From a bacterium (GTDB lineage Bacteria > Patescibacteriota > Minisyncoccia > UBA6257 > UBA9933): a stretch of DNA of 59,114 nt. The stretch's first letter is position 1. Every line of letters starts with the position of its first letter. The notes beneath the pieces are model-generated. The model ran no database searches. It saw nothing but the letters and a program-made list of their open reading frames with translations, and had not been told where the DNA came from. Shown piece by piece: positions 8,856 to 15,080 of the stretch. The position numbers were made by a program, and so were the translations under genes. The stretch is taken from contig JAUYBE010000004.1 of the NCBI GenBank assembly GCA_030693235.1, positions 1 through 59,114 of the forward strand, in the 5' to 3' direction.

Positions 8856-9698
8856 ATGTTAATTTTTCTATACGGTTCTGATTCTTATCGTCGGCAGAAA
8901 AAATTAAATTATTACACAGAAGAATACAGAAAGAAATATTCCAATCTTTCTTGTGATTTTTTTGATTTGGAAAATCCCGAAGAATTTTTAAGATTAAAAG
9001 AATTTTCCGGCCAGCAATTGCTTTTTGACAATAAAAAAATGGCGGTTTTGAACAATGTTTTTGAGATTGAAACGAAAGAATTGAAAGTTTTTTTAAAAAA
9101 ATATATAGATTTGGAGGATTTCACGATTTTAATTTCTGAAGACAATTTGCCGTCGAAAGAATTGGAATTTATGATAAAAAAAGCGTTTAAAGTTGAAGAA
9201 TTCAAAGAGCTTAAAAACGAGAATTGGCGATTTTTTGTTCAAAAAGAAGCCAAAGAAAGAAAAGCGGTCTTAACGCCCGGAGCTGTAAATTTTTTAGCCG
9301 AAGTTTATAAAAACGACAACTGGGGTTTGGTCAATGAATTGGATAAAATAAGTTTATGGCATTCGAATAGCGCGCCTTCGCCTATCGACATTGAAGATTT
9401 GAAGAAAATCGGCGATTATAATTACGAGTCGCCGGACATTTTCGCTTTTATCAACGCCGTTTCTCTGCCTACGGCAGATCTCTCGCAGGGAGAAAGAAAT
9501 TGGCCCTTGGCGCGCAGAATTATCGCTTTGGAAAAATTATTTATCAGTCAGGAAGAGCCGGTTAAAATTTTTAACATCTTCGCGAGCTTGAATCGATTGC
9601 CTCGTCAAATAATCGAAAAACTTGCCGATTGCGATATAATGGTAAAATCGGGGAAAATGGACTATGAAGAAGTTTTAGTTGATTTGGCGTTGAGTTAA
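8856..9698 (+). CDS. holA: DNA polymerase III delta subunit
   Basis: 'MLIFLYGSDSY', 'NELDKI' HolA-like motifs. Confidence 0.8.
   Translation: MLIFLYGSDSYRRQKKLNYYTEEYRKKYSNLSCDFFDLENPEEFLRLKEFSGQQLLFDNKKMAVLNNVFEIETKELKVFLKKYIDLEDFTILISEDNLPSKELEFMIKKAFKVEEFKELKNENWRFFVQKEAKERKAVLTPGAVNFLAEVYKNDNWGLVNELDKISLWHSNSAPSPIDIEDLKKIGDYNYESPDIFAFINAVSLPTADLSQGERNWPLARRIIALEKLFISQEEPVKIFNIFASLNRLPRQIIEKLADCDIMVKSGKMDYEEVLVDLALS
9464..9493. repeat. 30-bp repeat family C, in frame in holA
   Basis: Reverse complement differs by 1 nt from 12727-12756; third copy at 11622-11651 in infB. Confidence 0.85.
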
Positions 9699-10793: not shown

Positions 10794-12239
10794 ATGGCAG
10801 AAAATCAAACTCAAAACCTAAAACCTAAAACCCAAAACCTACTACCGCGGTCGCCCATTGTTGTTGTAATGGGTCATGTTGACCACGGCAAAACGACTTT
10901 GCTTTCTTATATTCGAAAGACAAAAATGCCTAAAGAAGCCGGAGGAATTACGCAATCAATTGGCGCTTATGTTATAACGCATAATTCAAAGCCCATAACT
11001 TTCATTGATACGCCGGGACATGAAGCTTTTTCAAAAATGCGGCAGCGCGGCGCGAAGATTGCCGACTTGGGAATTTTGGTGGTGGCGGCCGATGAAGGTA
11101 TTAAACCACAAACCAAAGAGGCGATTGAAATCTTGCAGAAAAGCGAAACGCCTTTTGTGGTGGCTGTTAATAAAATCGACAAACCGGCTGCTGATATTGA
11201 GCGGATAAAACAAGAGTTGATGCAGGCCGGAGTTTTATTGGAAGGTTTTGGCGGCAATATTTCGTGGCAGGCGGTTTCAGCTAAAACCGGAGAGGGGATA
11301 AACGAGCTTTTGGATTTGATTTTATTGGCGGCGGAGATGGAAGGATTAACTTATGATTTGGAAAGCCGGGGCAGCGGCGTTATTATTGAATCAAAAGTTG
11401 ACAGCAGCCGCGGAATTACGGCGGTGACTATCATTAAAAACGGCGTTTTGAAAATTGGCGATGAGATCGCGACTCAAAGCGCGATCGGGAAAATAAGAAT
11501 TTTGGAAAATTTTTTGGGTGAGCGGGTTGCTCAATTGGAACCTTCAAATCCGGCTTTGATTTTGGGTTTTGAAACTTTGCCGCAAATCGGCGAGGAATTT
11601 ATGAGCGGTAAAATCGAATTGTCTATCTACGACAGATCTCCCGCAGGGAGAGCGGAAATTGAGATTAAAATTGAAGGAGAAAAAAGAATCAATCTCATTC
11701 TCAAAGCCGATGTTTCTGGTTTGCTAGAAGATCTTTCCGGAATCATTAAAACTTTTCCCAATGTTAAAATTATCAACGAATCGGTCGGCGATATCACCGA
11801 CGGCGATGTTAAGTTGGCGTTAAGCACTAATTCTATTATTATCGGTTTTAAATCGCGCCTTATTAAAGCCGCCGAAAATTTAGCCAAAGCTCAAAGCGTT
11901 AAAATTATCTCTTCCGATATTATTTATGATTTGTTTAAAAATCTTGAAGTTGAGCTGAAAAAATTGGAAGCGCCGATTATTAACGGCAGACTGGAAATTT
12001 TGGGCGTGTTCGGCAAAAAAGACGGCCGGCAAATTATCGGCGGCCGGGTGATGGAGGGGAGTTTTAAAAATAATTCAACGGTTGATATTCAAAGAAACGA
12101 AAAAGTTATCGGCAACGGCAAAATAATCAATCTTCAAAAAAACAAAAAGGATGCCGGTCAGGTTCAGAAAGACGAAGAATGCGGAATGCTTTTTGAATCA
12201 GAAACGACGATAAATATCGGCGACCAGCTAATATACTAG
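10794..12239 (+). CDS. infB: translation initiation factor IF-2 (short form)
   Basis: GHVDHGKTT, DTPGHEAF, NKID; lacks long N-terminal region. Confidence 0.97.
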   Translation: MAENQTQNLKPKTQNLLPRSPIVVVMGHVDHGKTTLLSYIRKTKMPKEAGGITQSIGAYVITHNSKPITFIDTPGHEAFSKMRQRGAKIADLGILVVAADEGIKPQTKEAIEILQKSETPFVVAVNKIDKPAADIERIKQELMQAGVLLEGFGGNISWQAVSAKTGEGINELLDLILLAAEMEGLTYDLESRGSGVIIESKVDSSRGITAVTIIKNGVLKIGDEIATQSAIGKIRILENFLGERVAQLEPSNPALILGFETLPQIGEEFMSGKIELSIYDRSPAGRAEIEIKIEGEKRINLILKADVSGLLEDLSGIIKTFPNVKIINESVGDITDGDVKLALSTNSIIIGFKSRLIKAAENLAKAQSVKIISSDIIYDLFKNLEVELKKLEAPIINGRLEILGVFGKKDGRQIIGGRVMEGSFKNNSTVDIQRNEKVIGNGKIINLQKNKKDAGQVQKDEECGMLFESETTINIGDQLIY

Positions 12240-12309
12240 CCACTAGCCACTAGAGTTTAGGGTTTAGAATTTACTATTGGCTAAACCCTATTGGCTAAAC
12301 CCTATCACA

Positions 12310-12657
12310 ATGAAACATCGTCCGGAGCGCGTTGTTAATTTAATAAAAGAAGAATTAAGCAAAATTATTGCGCGGGAACTTGAATTCCCCGATAGTTTGA
12401 TGACGATTACCGATGTTGAAATTGACAAGAAATTCAGCCGGGCAATTGTTAATTTTAGCGTTCTACCGTCGGATAAATTTGACCAGGCGCTTAAAATTCT
12501 TGAAAGAAACCGCCGTCATCTGCAGTATCTTTTAATGAAAAAAATAAACATCAAGCCGATGCCGGAGATTGTTTTTAAAGCGGACAGGGGATTGGAAAAA
12601 GCGGCGGAGATTGAAAAAATTTTAATTGAGAATAAAATAAATACAGACGTTGATTAA
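12310..12657 (+). CDS. rbfA: ribosome-binding factor A
   Basis: 'RPERV..LIKEELS.II', 'TITDVEI', 'P.I.F..D' motifs; follows infB. Confidence 0.92.
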   Translation: MKHRPERVVNLIKEELSKIIARELEFPDSLMTITDVEIDKKFSRAIVNFSVLPSDKFDQALKILERNRRHLQYLLMKKINIKPMPEIVFKADRGLEKAAEIEKILIENKINTDVD

Positions 12658-12692
12658 TACTGATTTCGGCTGAATTTATGCGGATAATTTAG

Positions 12693-12764
12693 GGCGTAGT
12701 GGCGAAGTAGCTAACGCGGCGGTCTGTCTCCCTGCGGGAGATCTGCCGTAGGCAGACAAAAACC
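12693..12764 (+). pseudogene. tRNA-Cys 5-prime fragment interrupted in the anticodon by a 30-bp repeat
   Basis: GGCGTAG-TG-GCGAAGTAGCTAACGC-G-GCGGTCTG [12727-12756 repeat C] CAAAAACC; no matching 3-prime half seen. Confidence 0.6.
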
Positions 12765-12766
12765 TT

Positions 12767-13024
12767 ATGAGTTATTATACATACGTATTATTGAGTCTGA
12801 AAAATAATGATATTTATATAGGTAGCGCGGAGGATTTATATGATAGAATTGATTTACATAATCAAGGCAAGGTAAAATCAACAAAAGGATATAAGCCGTG
12901 GAAATTACTTGAGCATTATGAATTTAAGTCACGAAGCGAGGCATTTAGACATGAAAAATTTTTAAAGACAGGTCAACAAAAAGAGATAATAAAAGATAAA
13001 TATGGCCAGGTAGCCAAGCAGTAA
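12767..13024 (+). CDS. GIY-YIG nuclease (small, free-standing)
   Basis: 'YTYVL.S...IYIGS...R...HN.GK.KST..YKPW.L...E....SEA...EK.LK'; stop codon lies inside tRNA-Cys. Confidence 0.93.
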   Translation: MSYYTYVLLSLKNNDIYIGSAEDLYDRIDLHNQGKVKSTKGYKPWKLLEHYEFKSRSEAFRHEKFLKTGQQKEIIKDKYGQVAKQ

Positions 13025-13075
13025 GGCATTGGTCTGCAAAACCAATATACATGGGTGCAATTCCCATCCTGGCCT
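13004..13075 (+). tRNA. tRNA-Cys(GCA)
   Basis: GGCCAGG/CCTGGCC acceptor, U discriminator, loop CT-GCA-AA; non-canonical T-loop TGCAATT. Confidence 0.9.
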
Positions 13076-13158
13076 CAAAATTTTGCAAAGCTATCGGGAC
13101 AAAACCGTTTAAAAATTATTATCTGTATTTTGATATTTGAATTTTAAATCATTATTAT

Positions 13159-13187
13159 GCCCGGGTGGCGGAACGGTTTACGCAGAG
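13159..13187 (+). pseudogene. tRNA-Leu 5-prime fragment
   Basis: GCCCGGGTGGCGGAACGGTTTACGC; ATGCCCGGGTGGCG is repeated at the start of the intact tRNA-Leu (13699-13712). Confidence 0.65.
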
Positions 13188-13230
13188 AATTGATATTGAT
13201 TATACATCTTCCATATAATATAATTTAATA

Positions 13231-13698
13231 ATGAGAAAGCGATCGTGGACGGTTGATCAATTAAAAAATGCTGTTCGAAATTCATTCAGCTATAGACAAG
13301 TTTTAATTAAATTAAAATTGCGTGAAGCTGGGGGAAATTATGAACAAATTAAAAAATATATAAAAGAATATGGGTTAGATATTAAGCATTTTAAAGGTCG
13401 AACTTGGAATAAGGGATTAAGGGGTATTGGCAAACCACGGATACCTTTAGAAAAAATTCTAGTAAAAAATAGTTTTTTCCAGAGTTTTAAATTAAAAAAG
13501 CGATTATTTGCAGTTGGTTTGAAGCCTCAATATTGCGAACAGTGCGGGTGGGCAAAACGAACGGATGATGGATATTTACCACTAGAACTAGATCATATTA
13601 ATAGTAATAGACACGATAATCGATTAGAAAATTTAAGAATTTTATGTCCTAATTGTCATAGTTTAACAACGAATCATCGAGGAAGAAGAAGAAAATAA
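13231..13698 (+). CDS. HNH endonuclease
   Basis: CxxC...LELDHINSNRHDNRLENLRILCPNCH. Confidence 0.93.
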   Translation: MRKRSWTVDQLKNAVRNSFSYRQVLIKLKLREAGGNYEQIKKYIKEYGLDIKHFKGRTWNKGLRGIGKPRIPLEKILVKNSFFQSFKLKKRLFAVGLKPQYCEQCGWAKRTDDGYLPLELDHINSNRHDNRLENLRILCPNCHSLTTNHRGRRRK

Positions 13699-13700
13699 AT

Positions 13701-13783
13701 GCCCGGGTGGCGTAATCGGTAGCCGCGCAACACTTAAAATGTTGTGGTTAATAACCGTGCCGGTTCGAGTCCGGCCCCGGGCA
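13701..13783 (+). tRNA. tRNA-Leu(TAA)
   Basis: GCCCGGG/CCCGGGC acceptor, loop CT-TAA-AA, variable arm, GGTTCGAGTCC. Confidence 0.94.
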
Positions 13784-13825
13784 CAAAATTTTGGCGAGAC
13801 TGGCCGACCCGCCGGCCGGCAGGTG

Positions 13826-13941
13826 TCGCAGATAACACAATTATTAAAATTGAAGCTGGTAAAAATCAAAACCCAATGTTCGATACGCTCAAAAAAATCG
13901 TGAAAGCGTTGGGTGTTTCAATTAAGGATTTAATTAAATAA
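13826..13941 (+). pseudogene. XRE-family HTH regulator, C-terminal remnant
   Basis: 'TIIKIEAGKNQNP.FDTLKKIVKALGVSIKDLIK' with no plausible start or first helices. Confidence 0.55.
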
Positions 13942-13942
13942 T

Positions 13943-14314
13943 ATGACAAATAAAACACTAGCAATATTTGGAATAGGAACTTACATTTTATCTGTCCTGT
14001 CGTCTGCTGAAAATTTGGAAGGAAATTCTATCGCACCAATTGCTTTGATAGCAATATCTGGGATTGCAACAACGGTGTTTATTGTTTTGGCAACAATTCG
14101 TCTGTGGAAAGAGGTAAAAAATGTATCAATAATACTTATATCTTCAGCAGTTCTTCTTTTTATATTTACGGCAATTCAAATGTTAACTTCGCCTTCATAT
14201 GGAAGTCCAATTATCATCCTTTTGAATATAGTAAAGGTAATTTATTTTATTGCATTTATTTGGTCTATAATAAAACTTTTCAAAATAAGAAAAGTTAATG
14301 ATTCAGCAAAATAA
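13943..14314 (+). CDS. hypothetical membrane protein
   Basis: 123-aa, 4 TM. Confidence 0.65.
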   Translation: MTNKTLAIFGIGTYILSVLSSAENLEGNSIAPIALIAISGIATTVFIVLATIRLWKEVKNVSIILISSAVLLFIFTAIQMLTSPSYGSPIIILLNIVKVIYFIAFIWSIIKLFKIRKVNDSAK

Positions 14315-14741
14315 AATTATGGGGTTCATGAGCTTAATTTATTTCATTATTTTTTTCGTCATCAGTTGGCTAATACTGATGAAAATTTTTAGTTTCAGCA
14401 CGTATCATAAACATTTTTATAAAACCTTGCCGATATTATTGATTTATTCAGCACTTCTGGGTTATTTGCTCGATATATTTGAGCTTCACGAGTTCTTTTT
14501 ATGGTTTTTGATAATCAATGTTGTTTTGTTCGTCAAAAATTACAAAAGATACAAAAAACAAGATTTAATGGAAGGAGTTGGCGAAGATTATAAAAATCTC
14601 ATATCGGAAGAAAAAATCAAAGAAACTTTAGAAAAATCAACAAAAAATACGCTCAAATATTTTATCATTAGCTCCGCTGTGTATTTCTTGTTTTTCTCTG
14701 CTACTTACTTGTTTTTCTTTAACGAACATTTGTGGAAATAA
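14298..14741 (+). CDS. hypothetical membrane protein
   Basis: 147-aa, TM-rich, overlaps upstream stop. Confidence 0.6.
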   Translation: MIQQNKIMGFMSLIYFIIFFVISWLILMKIFSFSTYHKHFYKTLPILLIYSALLGYLLDIFELHEFFLWFLIINVVLFVKNYKRYKKQDLMEGVGEDYKNLISEEKIKETLEKSTKNTLKYFIISSAVYFLFFSATYLFFFNEHLWK

Positions 14742-14753
14742 AAAAGAATAAAA

Positions 14754-15080
14754 ATGGAACTAAACAAAAAGAAAAACATCGCACTGCTCATCGCCGCCGC
14801 CTTTTTGTTCTTTGCTTTGTTTGACGGTTGGCCTTATGGATTTTTCACACTCTTGCGATTTGTTGTGTTCGCAAGCTCGGCATATGTTGCATGGATGGCG
14901 TATGAATCGCAAAAAGAGAAATGGGTTTGGATTTTTGGATTTCTCGCGGTTCTTTTCAATCCATTTATCGTTATTCATCTCAATCGTGATATGTGGAGCG
15001 TAATTGACTTGATTGTGGGAGTATTTATGATCGTCTCTATTTTTGTGTTAAAATTAGAACACAAACAGAGTCCGAGTTGA
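14754..15080 (+). CDS. small membrane protein (DUF6804-like)
   Basis: 'WPYGFFTLLRFVV...LFNPF..IHL.R..W..ID' pattern. Confidence 0.7.
   Translation: MELNKKKNIALLIAAAFLFFALFDGWPYGFFTLLRFVVFASSAYVAWMAYESQKEKWVWIFGFLAVLFNPFIVIHLNRDMWSVIDLIVGVFMIVSIFVLKLEHKQSPS

Follow-up and report, generated by a model that had tools for sequence, protein, structure and literature searches.

Two putative intron-less nuclease cassettes of homing type in the tRNA-Cys and tRNA-Leu(UAA) genes of a groundwater patescibacterium

The usual view is that a homing endonuclease can persist in an essential gene only with the help of an intron or intein, or at a position that is not essential. In phages T4/T6, SegB is a free-standing GIY-YIG homing endonuclease whose gene lies in a tRNA cluster; it recognises the tRNA T-psi-C motif and homes together with the flanking tRNA genes, and related genomes are without its gene (PMC2330249). 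The HNH endonucleases F-TflI/II/IV of phage T5 also belong to a tRNA gene region (PMC2330249). Another group of small nucleases, the single-domain GIY-YIG proteins of the Ssn family, cut dispersed hairpin repeats that flank their own genes, and they cut them as single-stranded DNA (SsnA, NTS; PMC11893778). Here we describe a stretch of 59,114 nt (contig JAUYBE010000004.1 of assembly GCA_030693235.1, hereafter the window) from a bacterium of the Patescibacteriota, in which a GIY-YIG gene and an HNH gene each stand between a piece of a tRNA gene and a complete tRNA gene, namely tRNA-Cys(GCA) and tRNA-Leu(UAA), respectively. We think it probable that the two units are independent, horizontally mobile, intron-less nuclease cassettes of homing type, each of which breaks a tRNA gene and supplies the replacement.

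Organization of the two nuclease-tRNA units

The window is contig C11 of a 611-kb genome in 18 contigs (G000), which was obtained from a groundwater metagenome, has 46 tRNA genes and is estimated to be 100% complete. In the local gene order, infB and rbfA precede the nuclease/tRNA region and follow a tRNA-Ser(GCU) gene of the opposite strand. An independent Logan assembly of the source run gave a single contig spanning 12200-13792 with 0 differences from the window, and therefore the arrangement is not a mis-join. A first-pass annotation had described two tandem units of a 5' tRNA fragment, an endonuclease and an intact tRNA of the same isotype. ARAGORN, Rfam and Pfam found all of the tRNA genes and nuclease open reading frames (ORFs) listed in it, with the GIY-YIG gene before tRNA-Cys and the HNH gene before tRNA-Leu; the 21-nt overlap of the GIY-YIG ORF with tRNA-Cys (13004-13024) and the HNH stop codon 2 nt before tRNA-Leu were also as described. 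The features are collected in Table 1.

Table 1. Features of the two units and copies of the double-hairpin (DH) repeat; positions are those of the window unless another contig is given
Feature	Position	Strand	Basis and remarks
Relic of an old tRNA-Cys, nt 1-34 (GGCGTAGTGGCGAAGTAGCTAACGCGGCGGTCTG)	12693-12726	+	Sequence inspection; D-arm and anticodon stem close to those of the G014 and L132 alleles
DH repeat, 30 nt, TCTCCC-TGC-GGGAGA then TCTGCC-GTA-GGCAGA	12727-12756	+	Between G34 and C35 of the old anticodon
Remaining anticodon loop and 3' stem strand (CAAAAACCTT)	12757-12766	+	Abuts the GIY-YIG start codon
Single-domain GIY-YIG nuclease ORF, 85 aa	12767-13024	+	Pfam PF01541, E=4e-13; domain at residues 3-71
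Intact tRNA-Cys(GCA)	13004-13076	+	ARAGORN; Rfam 66.4 bits; sole copy in the genome
Decayed relic, DH tail and CAAAACCGTT (old anticodon-stem 3' strand)	13093-13109	+	Downstream of the intact tRNA-Cys; DH part 13093-13100
tRNA-Leu(UAA) relic, nt 1-29	13159-13187	+	Stops in the 5' strand of the anticodon stem; 29/29 nt agree with the start of G033 tRNA-Leu(UAA)
Promoter-like site, TTGATA-18-TATAAT and TTGATT-17-TATAAT	13190-13224	+	11/12 and 10/12 matches
HNH endonuclease ORF, 155 aa	13231-13698	+	Pfam PF01844, E=1e-5
Intact tRNA-Leu(UAA)	13701-13784	+	ARAGORN; Rfam 56.5 bits; sole copy in the genome
Other DH copies	11621-11651; 9463-9493; C4:83247-83276; C17:44850, 62984, 91336, 105103, 193353; C1:728		

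The HNH unit begins with the 5' part of a tRNA-Leu(UAA), which had been recognised as a Leu-like fragment before. Besides the relative given in the table, other organisms in three sequencing runs (X2, X4 and X8) have an intact tRNA-Leu(UAA) whose 5' end agrees with the relic in 29/29 positions; the contigs of these runs, which are Logan assemblies of read data placed on the window, extend the sequence as ...GACTTAAAATCCTTGAC into the anticodon arm, and the G033-type allele begins GCCCGGGTGGCGGAACGGTTTACGCAGAGGACTTAAAATCC. The exact repeat between the relic and the intact tRNA-Leu is 12 nt (GCCCGGGTGGCG) and not 14 bp, as had been stated. The -10 box of the promoter-like site ends 6 nt before the ATG of the HNH gene, so close that the HNH mRNA is probably leaderless, and the site presumably also serves the tRNA-Leu behind it. 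Around half of 50 homologous HNH loci have a TATAAT-like box some 12 nt ahead of the ATG. In an AlphaFold model (predicted local distance difference test score 86), the HNH protein consists of an N-terminal helical domain resembling a helix-turn-helix (HTH) and a C-terminal CxxC...CxxC beta-beta-alpha-Me nuclease, and over its full length it matches the phage family PHROG 10822 (E=3e-44). The residues H122, N124, N134 and H143 as well as four cysteines (zinc ligands) are invariant in 28 homologues. A fold search with the model against PDB gave only HNH domains with weak scores (E at least 0.013), and no informative match to the N-terminal domain.

The sequence in front of the GIY-YIG gene, which had been read as a Cys-like 5' half at 12693-12764, is indeed a tRNA relic, but it is a composite with a DH repeat in the anticodon rather than a simple 5' half. 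Its first 34 nt comprise the acceptor 5' strand and the D-arm, followed by the anticodon-stem 5' strand, the loop bases C-U and a G that was the first base of the anticodon, and in the D-arm and anticodon stem they nearly match the intact tRNA-Cys alleles of the table; neither Rfam nor ARAGORN makes a tRNA call on this part. The junction between the remaining anticodon arm and the start of the GIY-YIG gene has equivalents in G033, G007 and G064. The final seven codons of the ORF (six sense codons and the stop) coincide with nt 1-21 of tRNA-Cys. An RNase P cut at the 5' end of this tRNA would sever the GIY-YIG mRNA before its stop codon and leave a non-stop message, and the same genome encodes a transfer-messenger RNA (tmRNA; C14:10101-10462, 103.7 bits). 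The decayed relic downstream of the intact tRNA-Cys parallels fuller 3' relics of tRNA-Cys found downstream of the intact gene in G007, G064, G082, G088 and G033. The solved structure nearest to the GIY-YIG protein is the UPF0213 protein BH0048 (PDB sequence match, E=1e-5).

Stubs of this kind could be halves of split or intron-containing tRNAs that are joined at the RNA level. The well-formed acceptor strand, D-arm and anticodon-stem strand of the Cys stub would agree with that, as would the hairpin in the anticodon loop, where introns occur; even so, we find this explanation scarcely credible. A permissive Rfam scan of 12000-14500 (E<=10) gave two tRNAs only and neither an intron nor any other RNA family, and in the 100%-complete genome there is no 3' half for the Cys stub, which would consist of a T-arm and a CTACGCC acceptor strand. 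Moreover, intact single-copy genes for tRNA-Cys and tRNA-Leu(UAA) stand next door, and the hairpin repeat is also located inside protein-coding genes. The pairing of the fragments with a 3' half elsewhere, which the first-pass annotation had regarded as incompatible with its proposal, was not found for the Cys stub, and its view of the nucleases as free-standing genes agrees with the lack of an intron family and of a split tRNA partner in this genome.

Two further observations concern the assembly and the tRNA complement. A 42-nt context is common to C8 at about 2179, near the contig end, and to C11 at about 83, at the contig start, and these two contigs probably overlap. A tRNA-like sequence at C4:158862-158932 has a good T-arm and acceptor stem with an aberrant D and anticodon region; it scores 28 bits with the tRNA-like part of the tmRNA model and has no ARAGORN call.

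Distribution, horizontal transfer and empty sites

Among 101 genomes of relatives (labelled G, with G001 from the same genus as the window), a close HNH homologue is present in 10, always directly 5' of tRNA-Leu(UAA), and G001 is without it. A wider scan with one genome per species gave 49 loci (here and below, loci are labelled L), which are distributed over many classes of Patescibacteria, two Aminicenantes and two Elusimicrobia; one of the Aminicenantes copies is on a 4.3-Mb chromosome. Bearers of related HNH genes include genomes named Jorgensenbacteria and Parcubacteria, in line with a patescibacterial origin of the window. In this survey for a common nuclease-tRNA layout, of a kind that had been proposed earlier, tRNA-Leu(UAA) was called at 46 of the 49 loci, and at 44 of these 46 it lies 0-25 nt downstream of the HNH gene on the same strand. 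The upstream neighbours of the HNH gene vary, while this tRNA stays. The HNH protein is 62-83% identical to the window copy where the C-terminus of IF-2 is only 38-54% and RbfA 37-65% identical, and G001, whose IF-2 is 72% identical, has no HNH. In the HNH tree the members of one family are scattered, and copies from Roizmanbacteria, Elusimicrobia and Aminicenantes are nested among those of Parcubacteria type. Judged from the HNH and IF-2 identities, the occurrence in three phyla and the conflict of the tree with taxonomy, the HNH gene has evidently been transferred horizontally, in agreement with the former reading of the nucleases as homing endonucleases.

Relics of the 5' part of tRNA-Leu recur upstream of the HNH gene in many loci across phyla. 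About a third of the loci have such a relic together with an inverted copy of it in the promoter spacer, and in about 16 loci the best upstream stem is at a common position, roughly -60 and -15. A search for a hairpin of D-arm relic and inverted copy upstream of HNH exceeded shuffled sequences in only 2 of 50 AT-rich loci, and the window itself is without such a hairpin. The upstream hairpin is a recurring feature, not a universal one.

More distant HNH clades are located 5' of tRNA-Thr, tRNA-Ser(UGA) and tRNA-His, and phage homologues are within tRNA clusters, one of them directly 5' of tRNA-Leu(UAG). In addition, a partial HNH homologue in Nostoc flagelliforme (L156, contig42, 1501-1779; 51% over residues 60-152) lies just past a cluster of five tRNA genes. 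In G037 (L061, G037:C114, 1874-2563), the HNH slot between tRNA-Cys and tRNA-Leu(UAA) is taken by an ORF for a LAGLIDADG_3 protein of 229 aa, which overlaps the tRNA by 15 nt. This ORF is preceded by a terminator-like hairpin, AAAAGACGCG-CACATA-CGCGTCTTTT, and by TGGTATAAT; the hairpin is equivalent to that upstream of HNH and looks like an ordinary terminator. The tRNA-Leu(UAA) of the window is nearly identical to that of G037, and also to those of G009 and G007. Relatives of the LAGLIDADG protein are encoded 5' of tRNA-Leu(GAG), tRNA-Leu(UAG) and tRNA-Asp. By their positions, each nuclease clade is evidently tied to one tRNA isoacceptor, and the earlier idea that two unrelated folds, HNH and GIY-YIG, converged on one strategy is supported and extends to LAGLIDADG as a third family.

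Loci with and without the nucleases were compared in relatives, as had also been proposed, and empty alleles were found. Most relatives have rbfA, tRNA-Cys, a spacer of 0-100 nt (72 nt in G001) and tRNA-Leu(UAA), with no nuclease. A relative known from read data (hereafter R; runs X4, X6 and X8, 24-29x depth) has rbfA, 19 nt, tRNA-Cys, a spacer and an intact tRNA-Leu, and neither of the nucleases. Its tRNA-Cys is the window allele, with no difference listed over 13004-13076, and its spacer is homologous to that of the window and about 80-85% identical, the 82 nt differing by 13 substitutions and 3 gaps. The tRNA-Leu of R is of the G001 type and differs from that of the window at about a quarter of the first 46 positions, the differences being in the D-loop and anticodon stem. 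As R keeps the tRNA-Cys of the window and a homologous spacer but has another tRNA-Leu, the comparison fits a replacement of tRNA-Leu with the arrival of the HNH gene. In a second relative (X2, X4), rbfA is 93% identical and directly followed by a different tRNA-Cys allele. In total, three tRNA-Cys alleles and at least two tRNA-Leu alleles exist among organisms with rbfA about 93% identical, and the presence of both units is sporadic, with empty sites both within the genus and at this close distance.

Furthermore, a 661-nt contig in runs X6 and X8, which come from the same aquifer studies, aligns to window 13699-13783 with its tRNA-Leu(UAA) 85/85 identical; it belongs to another organism, and the sequence upstream of this tRNA is unlike the 3' end of the window's HNH gene. 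According to these alignments, the tRNA-Leu(UAA) allele of the window circulates between backgrounds. On the 3' side of tRNA-Leu, relatives in X2, X4 and X6 have the first 23 nt in common with the window and then lack 15 nt (CCGCCGGCCGGCAGG). The ORF 13744-13941, directly 3' of tRNA-Leu, matches only the C-terminal two thirds of the HTH_3 (XRE-type) profile, positions 19-55 of 55; it is a truncated regulator gene and hints at a past rearrangement at this side.

tRNA genes are classical integration sites, and it could be assumed that the nucleases are passengers of decayed integrative elements or phage remnants at such hot spots, with the stubs comparable to attL/attR. The truncated HTH_3 gene and the phage-related HNH family would be in line with that. 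We regard this as very improbable. The cassettes have a size of only about 0.35-0.55 kb and no integrase in their vicinity, they duplicate the 5' end of the tRNA whereas integrases use the 3' end, and the one-gene cassette recurs across phyla. Among the ORFs of 11500-15000 only infB is long enough for an integrase, no integrase match was obtained for the five ORFs scanned (GIY-YIG, HNH, rbfA and two downstream), and an att-type repeat, in the form of another tRNA-Leu 3' end, is absent from the window.

The GIY-YIG unit and its double hairpins in other genomes

Close homologues of the GIY-YIG protein are encoded in G033, G007, G082 and G064 (60-71% identity), and G088 has a copy with about 50% identity. 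Each of the five genes stands immediately before tRNA-Cys and extends as far as this tRNA or into it, the core motifs and catalytic residues are conserved, and each locus has older tRNA-Cys pieces around the unit and a DH at the identical anticodon position. Compensatory changes distinguish the DH stems of the different genomes; those of G033, for instance, are TCTCGC/GCGAGA and TCTGGC/GCCAGA. In G033 the upstream Cys stub agrees with G001 and G025 tRNA-Cys in 33/33 positions, and a matching piece with variable loop, T-arm and acceptor strand is present downstream of the new tRNA-Cys. The two relics are halves of an allele of G001/G025 type, and therefore a known allele seems to have been split here by DH, GIY-YIG gene and new tRNA-Cys. 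Direct repeats of the anticodon arm with its DH flank the cassette on both sides in G007 and G064. In addition, G064 has a 3' relic of the very allele to which the GIY-YIG gene is linked in G007, a finding that points to serial invasions. From this comparison of loci, the GIY-YIG unit is evidently a mobile insertion into a tRNA gene, bringing or leaving a full copy.

The unit also shows two features of the Ssn family, a small single-domain GIY-YIG protein and flanking hairpin repeats that are dispersed in the genome. At least 10 copies of the DH exist in the 611-kb genome, usually as TTG-DH-AAA, and the consensus of the family is TCTCCC-NNN-GGGAGA followed by TCTSCC-NNN-GGSAGA, about 30 nt in all. 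An exact DH pattern matched only 3 of the 101 relatives, but the stems co-vary, so pattern searches undercount. The copy in infB (11621-11651) is in frame within a length-variable linker and reads SIYDRSPAGR, and the copy in a rluD-like gene (C4:83247-83276) is in frame as well. Such dispersed in-frame repeats resemble the Rickettsia palindromic elements and the Ssn-related motifs.

The GIY-YIG family as a whole has copies in 76 of the 101 relatives, up to 9 per genome, and about 18 of 30 sampled copies have a tRNA gene on the same strand within about 60 nt downstream. The layout of stub, nuclease and tRNA was not seen at the other three copies in the genome of the window. The first, at C17:125719-126006, is intact, with an exonuclease-like gene on one side and an RNase H gene on the other; the second, at C17:207569-207898, is YhbQ-like and downstream of tRNA-Gln(CUG), behind a terminator; the third, at C4:80984-81142, is a pseudogene 1.2 kb from tRNA-Leu(GAG). 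The first and the third have a conserved upstream stretch in common, which is translated as NSTS-I/M-MFF.

Proposed mechanism and comparison with known systems

Both nuclease genes have an intact nuclease domain outside any intron or intein, as found by Pfam and Rfam, and sporadic presence with empty sites, horizontal spread and a single target locus were all observed. Judged by these computational traits, the HNH unit is probably a free-standing homing endonuclease gene dedicated to tRNA-Leu(UAA). In the mechanism that we favour, each cassette would be lodged in an essential single-copy tRNA gene and be tolerated through the complete tRNA copy directly behind the nuclease ORF. The HNH unit would consist of a relic of the first 26-29 nt of the tRNA, a sigma-70-type promoter, the HNH ORF, 0-25 nt and the full tRNA-Leu(UAA), so that the tRNA precursor would carry the HNH gene in its 5' leader. 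The HNH protein may cut an unoccupied tRNA-Leu(UAA) gene near the junction of D-arm and anticodon stem, and the break may be repaired from the occupied copy, with the upstream relic as the left homology arm and the tRNA as the right one. The repair would copy the ORF in and overwrite part or all of the resident tRNA. The order of stub, nuclease and full tRNA could be explained in this way, because repair from an occupied donor would propagate that layout. In the other unit, a single-domain nuclease ORF and a complete tRNA-Cys would sit inside an older tRNA-Cys, bracketed by DH copies or their remnants, and the GIY-YIG protein may work with the DH as the Ssn proteins do with their flanking hairpin repeats. 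We consider an action on hairpins or single-stranded DNA, as in the Ssn proteins, more likely than one on a long duplex site, because the GIY-YIG protein has no DNA-binding domain and the hairpin repeat is its constant partner.

Several points weigh against this mechanism, in which the cleavage of the tRNA gene by either nuclease, least securely for GIY-YIG, the immunity of the nuclease-linked allele, the repair pathway and any role of relic or hairpins are inferred. The GIY-YIG protein is a single domain, UPF0213/Ssn-like and without a DNA-binding domain, and therefore classical homing is less secure for this unit. The replacement of the resident tRNA by the carried allele, as claimed in the first-pass annotation, is supported for Leu by the differing tRNA-Leu of R, but the comparison within the genus does not demonstrate it: identities between the tRNAs of G000 and G001 range from 64 to 100%, and within this range Cys (72%) and Leu(UAA) (73%) do not stand out. 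An argument for replacement from these two genomes was therefore dropped. Moreover, when 50 HNH-linked tRNA-Leu alleles were compared with 24 HNH-free ones, the linked alleles were diverse and did not differ consistently from the free ones, and a dedicated resistant allele is thus not evident; a CAACA stem is present in 22/50 linked and 4/24 free alleles, a difference confounded by phylogeny. The tRNA-Leu(UAA) loci of the relatives were taken by position, as a pattern for the anticodon arm of tRNA-Leu(UAA) was too narrow (matches in 57 of 101 genomes, some of them false). The tRNA-Leu genes of G049, with HNH, and G030, without HNH, are identical, and an alignment of these two genomes from the same genus, made for the cassette borders, showed only the tRNA-Leu to align. 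The Leu relic of the window matches the G033-type allele and not that of the nearest HNH-free relatives, so it may be resident or imported. In addition, L121 (1357-1956) and L131 (625-1230) have no tRNA behind the HNH gene, which instead follows an intact tRNA-Leu(UAA) at a distance of about 60 nt; these two are a sister pair forming a well-supported HNH sub-clade, in which a working tRNA gene takes the position of the stub.

For the GIY-YIG unit, R and G050 have a new tRNA-Cys allele and the downstream relic without the 5' relic, the hairpin and the GIY-YIG gene, and therefore an extra loss step or a different mobile unit is needed. The latter could be a unit of stub, hairpin and ORF that has no tRNA of its own and inserts just 5' of the resident tRNA; the stub would then be a mimic, a guide or a homology arm of the element, and the intact tRNA would never be replaced. 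Besides R, which has the window's tRNA-Cys allele and lacks exactly these three parts, G050 gives the identical contrast with G033, the tRNA-Cys alleles linked to close GIY-YIG homologues all differ from each other, and the Cys stub of the window differs from its intact tRNA. The relics in G033 fit an insertion of GIY-YIG gene and tRNA together into a resident gene, and the relic in G064 suggests invasions that each brought a tRNA. We consider a tRNA-less unit improbable on balance.

Somewhat less improbable, though still unlikely in our opinion, is that the nucleases are functional genes retained by the host, which may restrict incoming DNA or control transformation in the way known for SsnA, and not active selfish elements. 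The position in the tRNA leader would give strong constitutive transcription, and the stubs would be scars of old local duplications. The intact ORFs with conserved catalytic residues, the wide occurrence and copy number of GIY-YIG among the relatives and the lack of a resistant-allele signature in tRNA-Leu would suit such genes, and the DH copies are dispersed like Ssn-related motifs. Ssn proteins with their flanking hairpin repeats do have a host-level role in Neisseria (PMC11893778). What speaks against a host function is that HNH is rare among the relatives and absent from the same genus, that its tree conflicts with taxonomy and that it is far more conserved than IF-2. Furthermore, the fidelity of clade to isoacceptor across phyla is not explained by a need for expression alone, and three unrelated nuclease families have a common layout.

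Returning to the mobile cassettes, a broader and more tentative proposal, which we hold to be possible rather than likely, is a guild of isoacceptor-specific cassettes of nuclease and spare tRNA in Patescibacteria and occasionally in other phyla. Each clade of HNH, LAGLIDADG or minimal GIY-YIG nucleases would have one essential, single-copy tRNA gene as its target, enter it with no intron, be transcribed as the tRNA 5' leader and overwrite the resident tRNA. Such cassettes would then be a major cause of the exceptionally rapid change of tRNA alleles among closely related organisms. The retained stub would be a working part, either a homology arm or an operator/terminator at the nuclease promoter, and the double hairpins would be the substrate that gives a bare GIY-YIG domain its site specificity.

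In an ultra-small bacterium from groundwater, the layout points to a way in which selfish DNA could settle in essential, single-copy tRNA genes with no need of an intron. Nucleases of three unrelated families appear to avoid the intron by breaking a single-copy tRNA gene and placing a complete copy after the nuclease ORF. Should this be confirmed, the cassettes would be a source of compact nucleases with long, conserved and predictable targets, namely tRNA genes, including an 85-aa GIY-YIG protein that may read DNA hairpins. They would also provide a mechanism for the horizontal replacement of tRNA genes in genome-reduced bacteria, and explain oddities in the annotation of candidate phyla radiation genomes, such as ORFs running into tRNAs and orphan tRNA halves. 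The model can be tested directly with the two small proteins and synthetic tRNA-gene substrates.

Nucleases of phage tRNA clusters such as SegB and F-Tfl are known, while our literature searches found no cellular cassette of nuclease and tRNA that rebuilds the tRNA gene. In Allomyces mitochondria, an endonuclease ORF is said, in work of Paquin and others from 1994 and 2000, to have brought a replacement end of the atp6 gene, with the displaced piece left as a pseudogene, and double-hairpin elements reportedly exist in the same genomes. Those cases concern organellar protein-coding genes in which only the 3' end is duplicated, and the resemblance is a lead and not a test. The likeness to the Ssn family (cd10448) lies in the size of the protein and the repeats: a small single-domain GIY-YIG nuclease whose gene is bracketed by hairpin repeats of 20-50 nt scattered in the genome, with a repeat-gene-repeat layout like that of an insertion sequence, although the nearest solved structure of the window protein is the UPF0213 one. 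In the window a tRNA anticodon holds the hairpin, and the nuclease gene is fused with a tRNA, whereas the description of Ssn has no mention of any tRNA (PMC11893778). F-TflI/II/IV are named in PMC2330249 as HNH endonucleases of a tRNA gene region, and in this respect the HNH unit is like them. Closer phage counterparts are the homologues from PHROG 10822 in Gordonia phage GodonK, Pakpunavirus and Escherichia phage EcSzw-2, which lie in tRNA clusters and abut or overlap the next tRNA; the HNH of the window is 38-47% identical to the phage copies, and its cellular clade differs in being fixed on tRNA-Leu(UAA) with a tRNA relic upstream. With SegB the locus has in common a free-standing nuclease gene among tRNA genes that is absent from relatives. 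SegB is a protein of about 220 aa with a DNA-binding domain, encoded between phage tRNA genes with no tRNA stub, whereas here the genomes are cellular, the tRNA is essential and single-copy, the cassette stands between a stub and a rebuilt copy, and the GIY-YIG protein is a bare domain of 85 aa.

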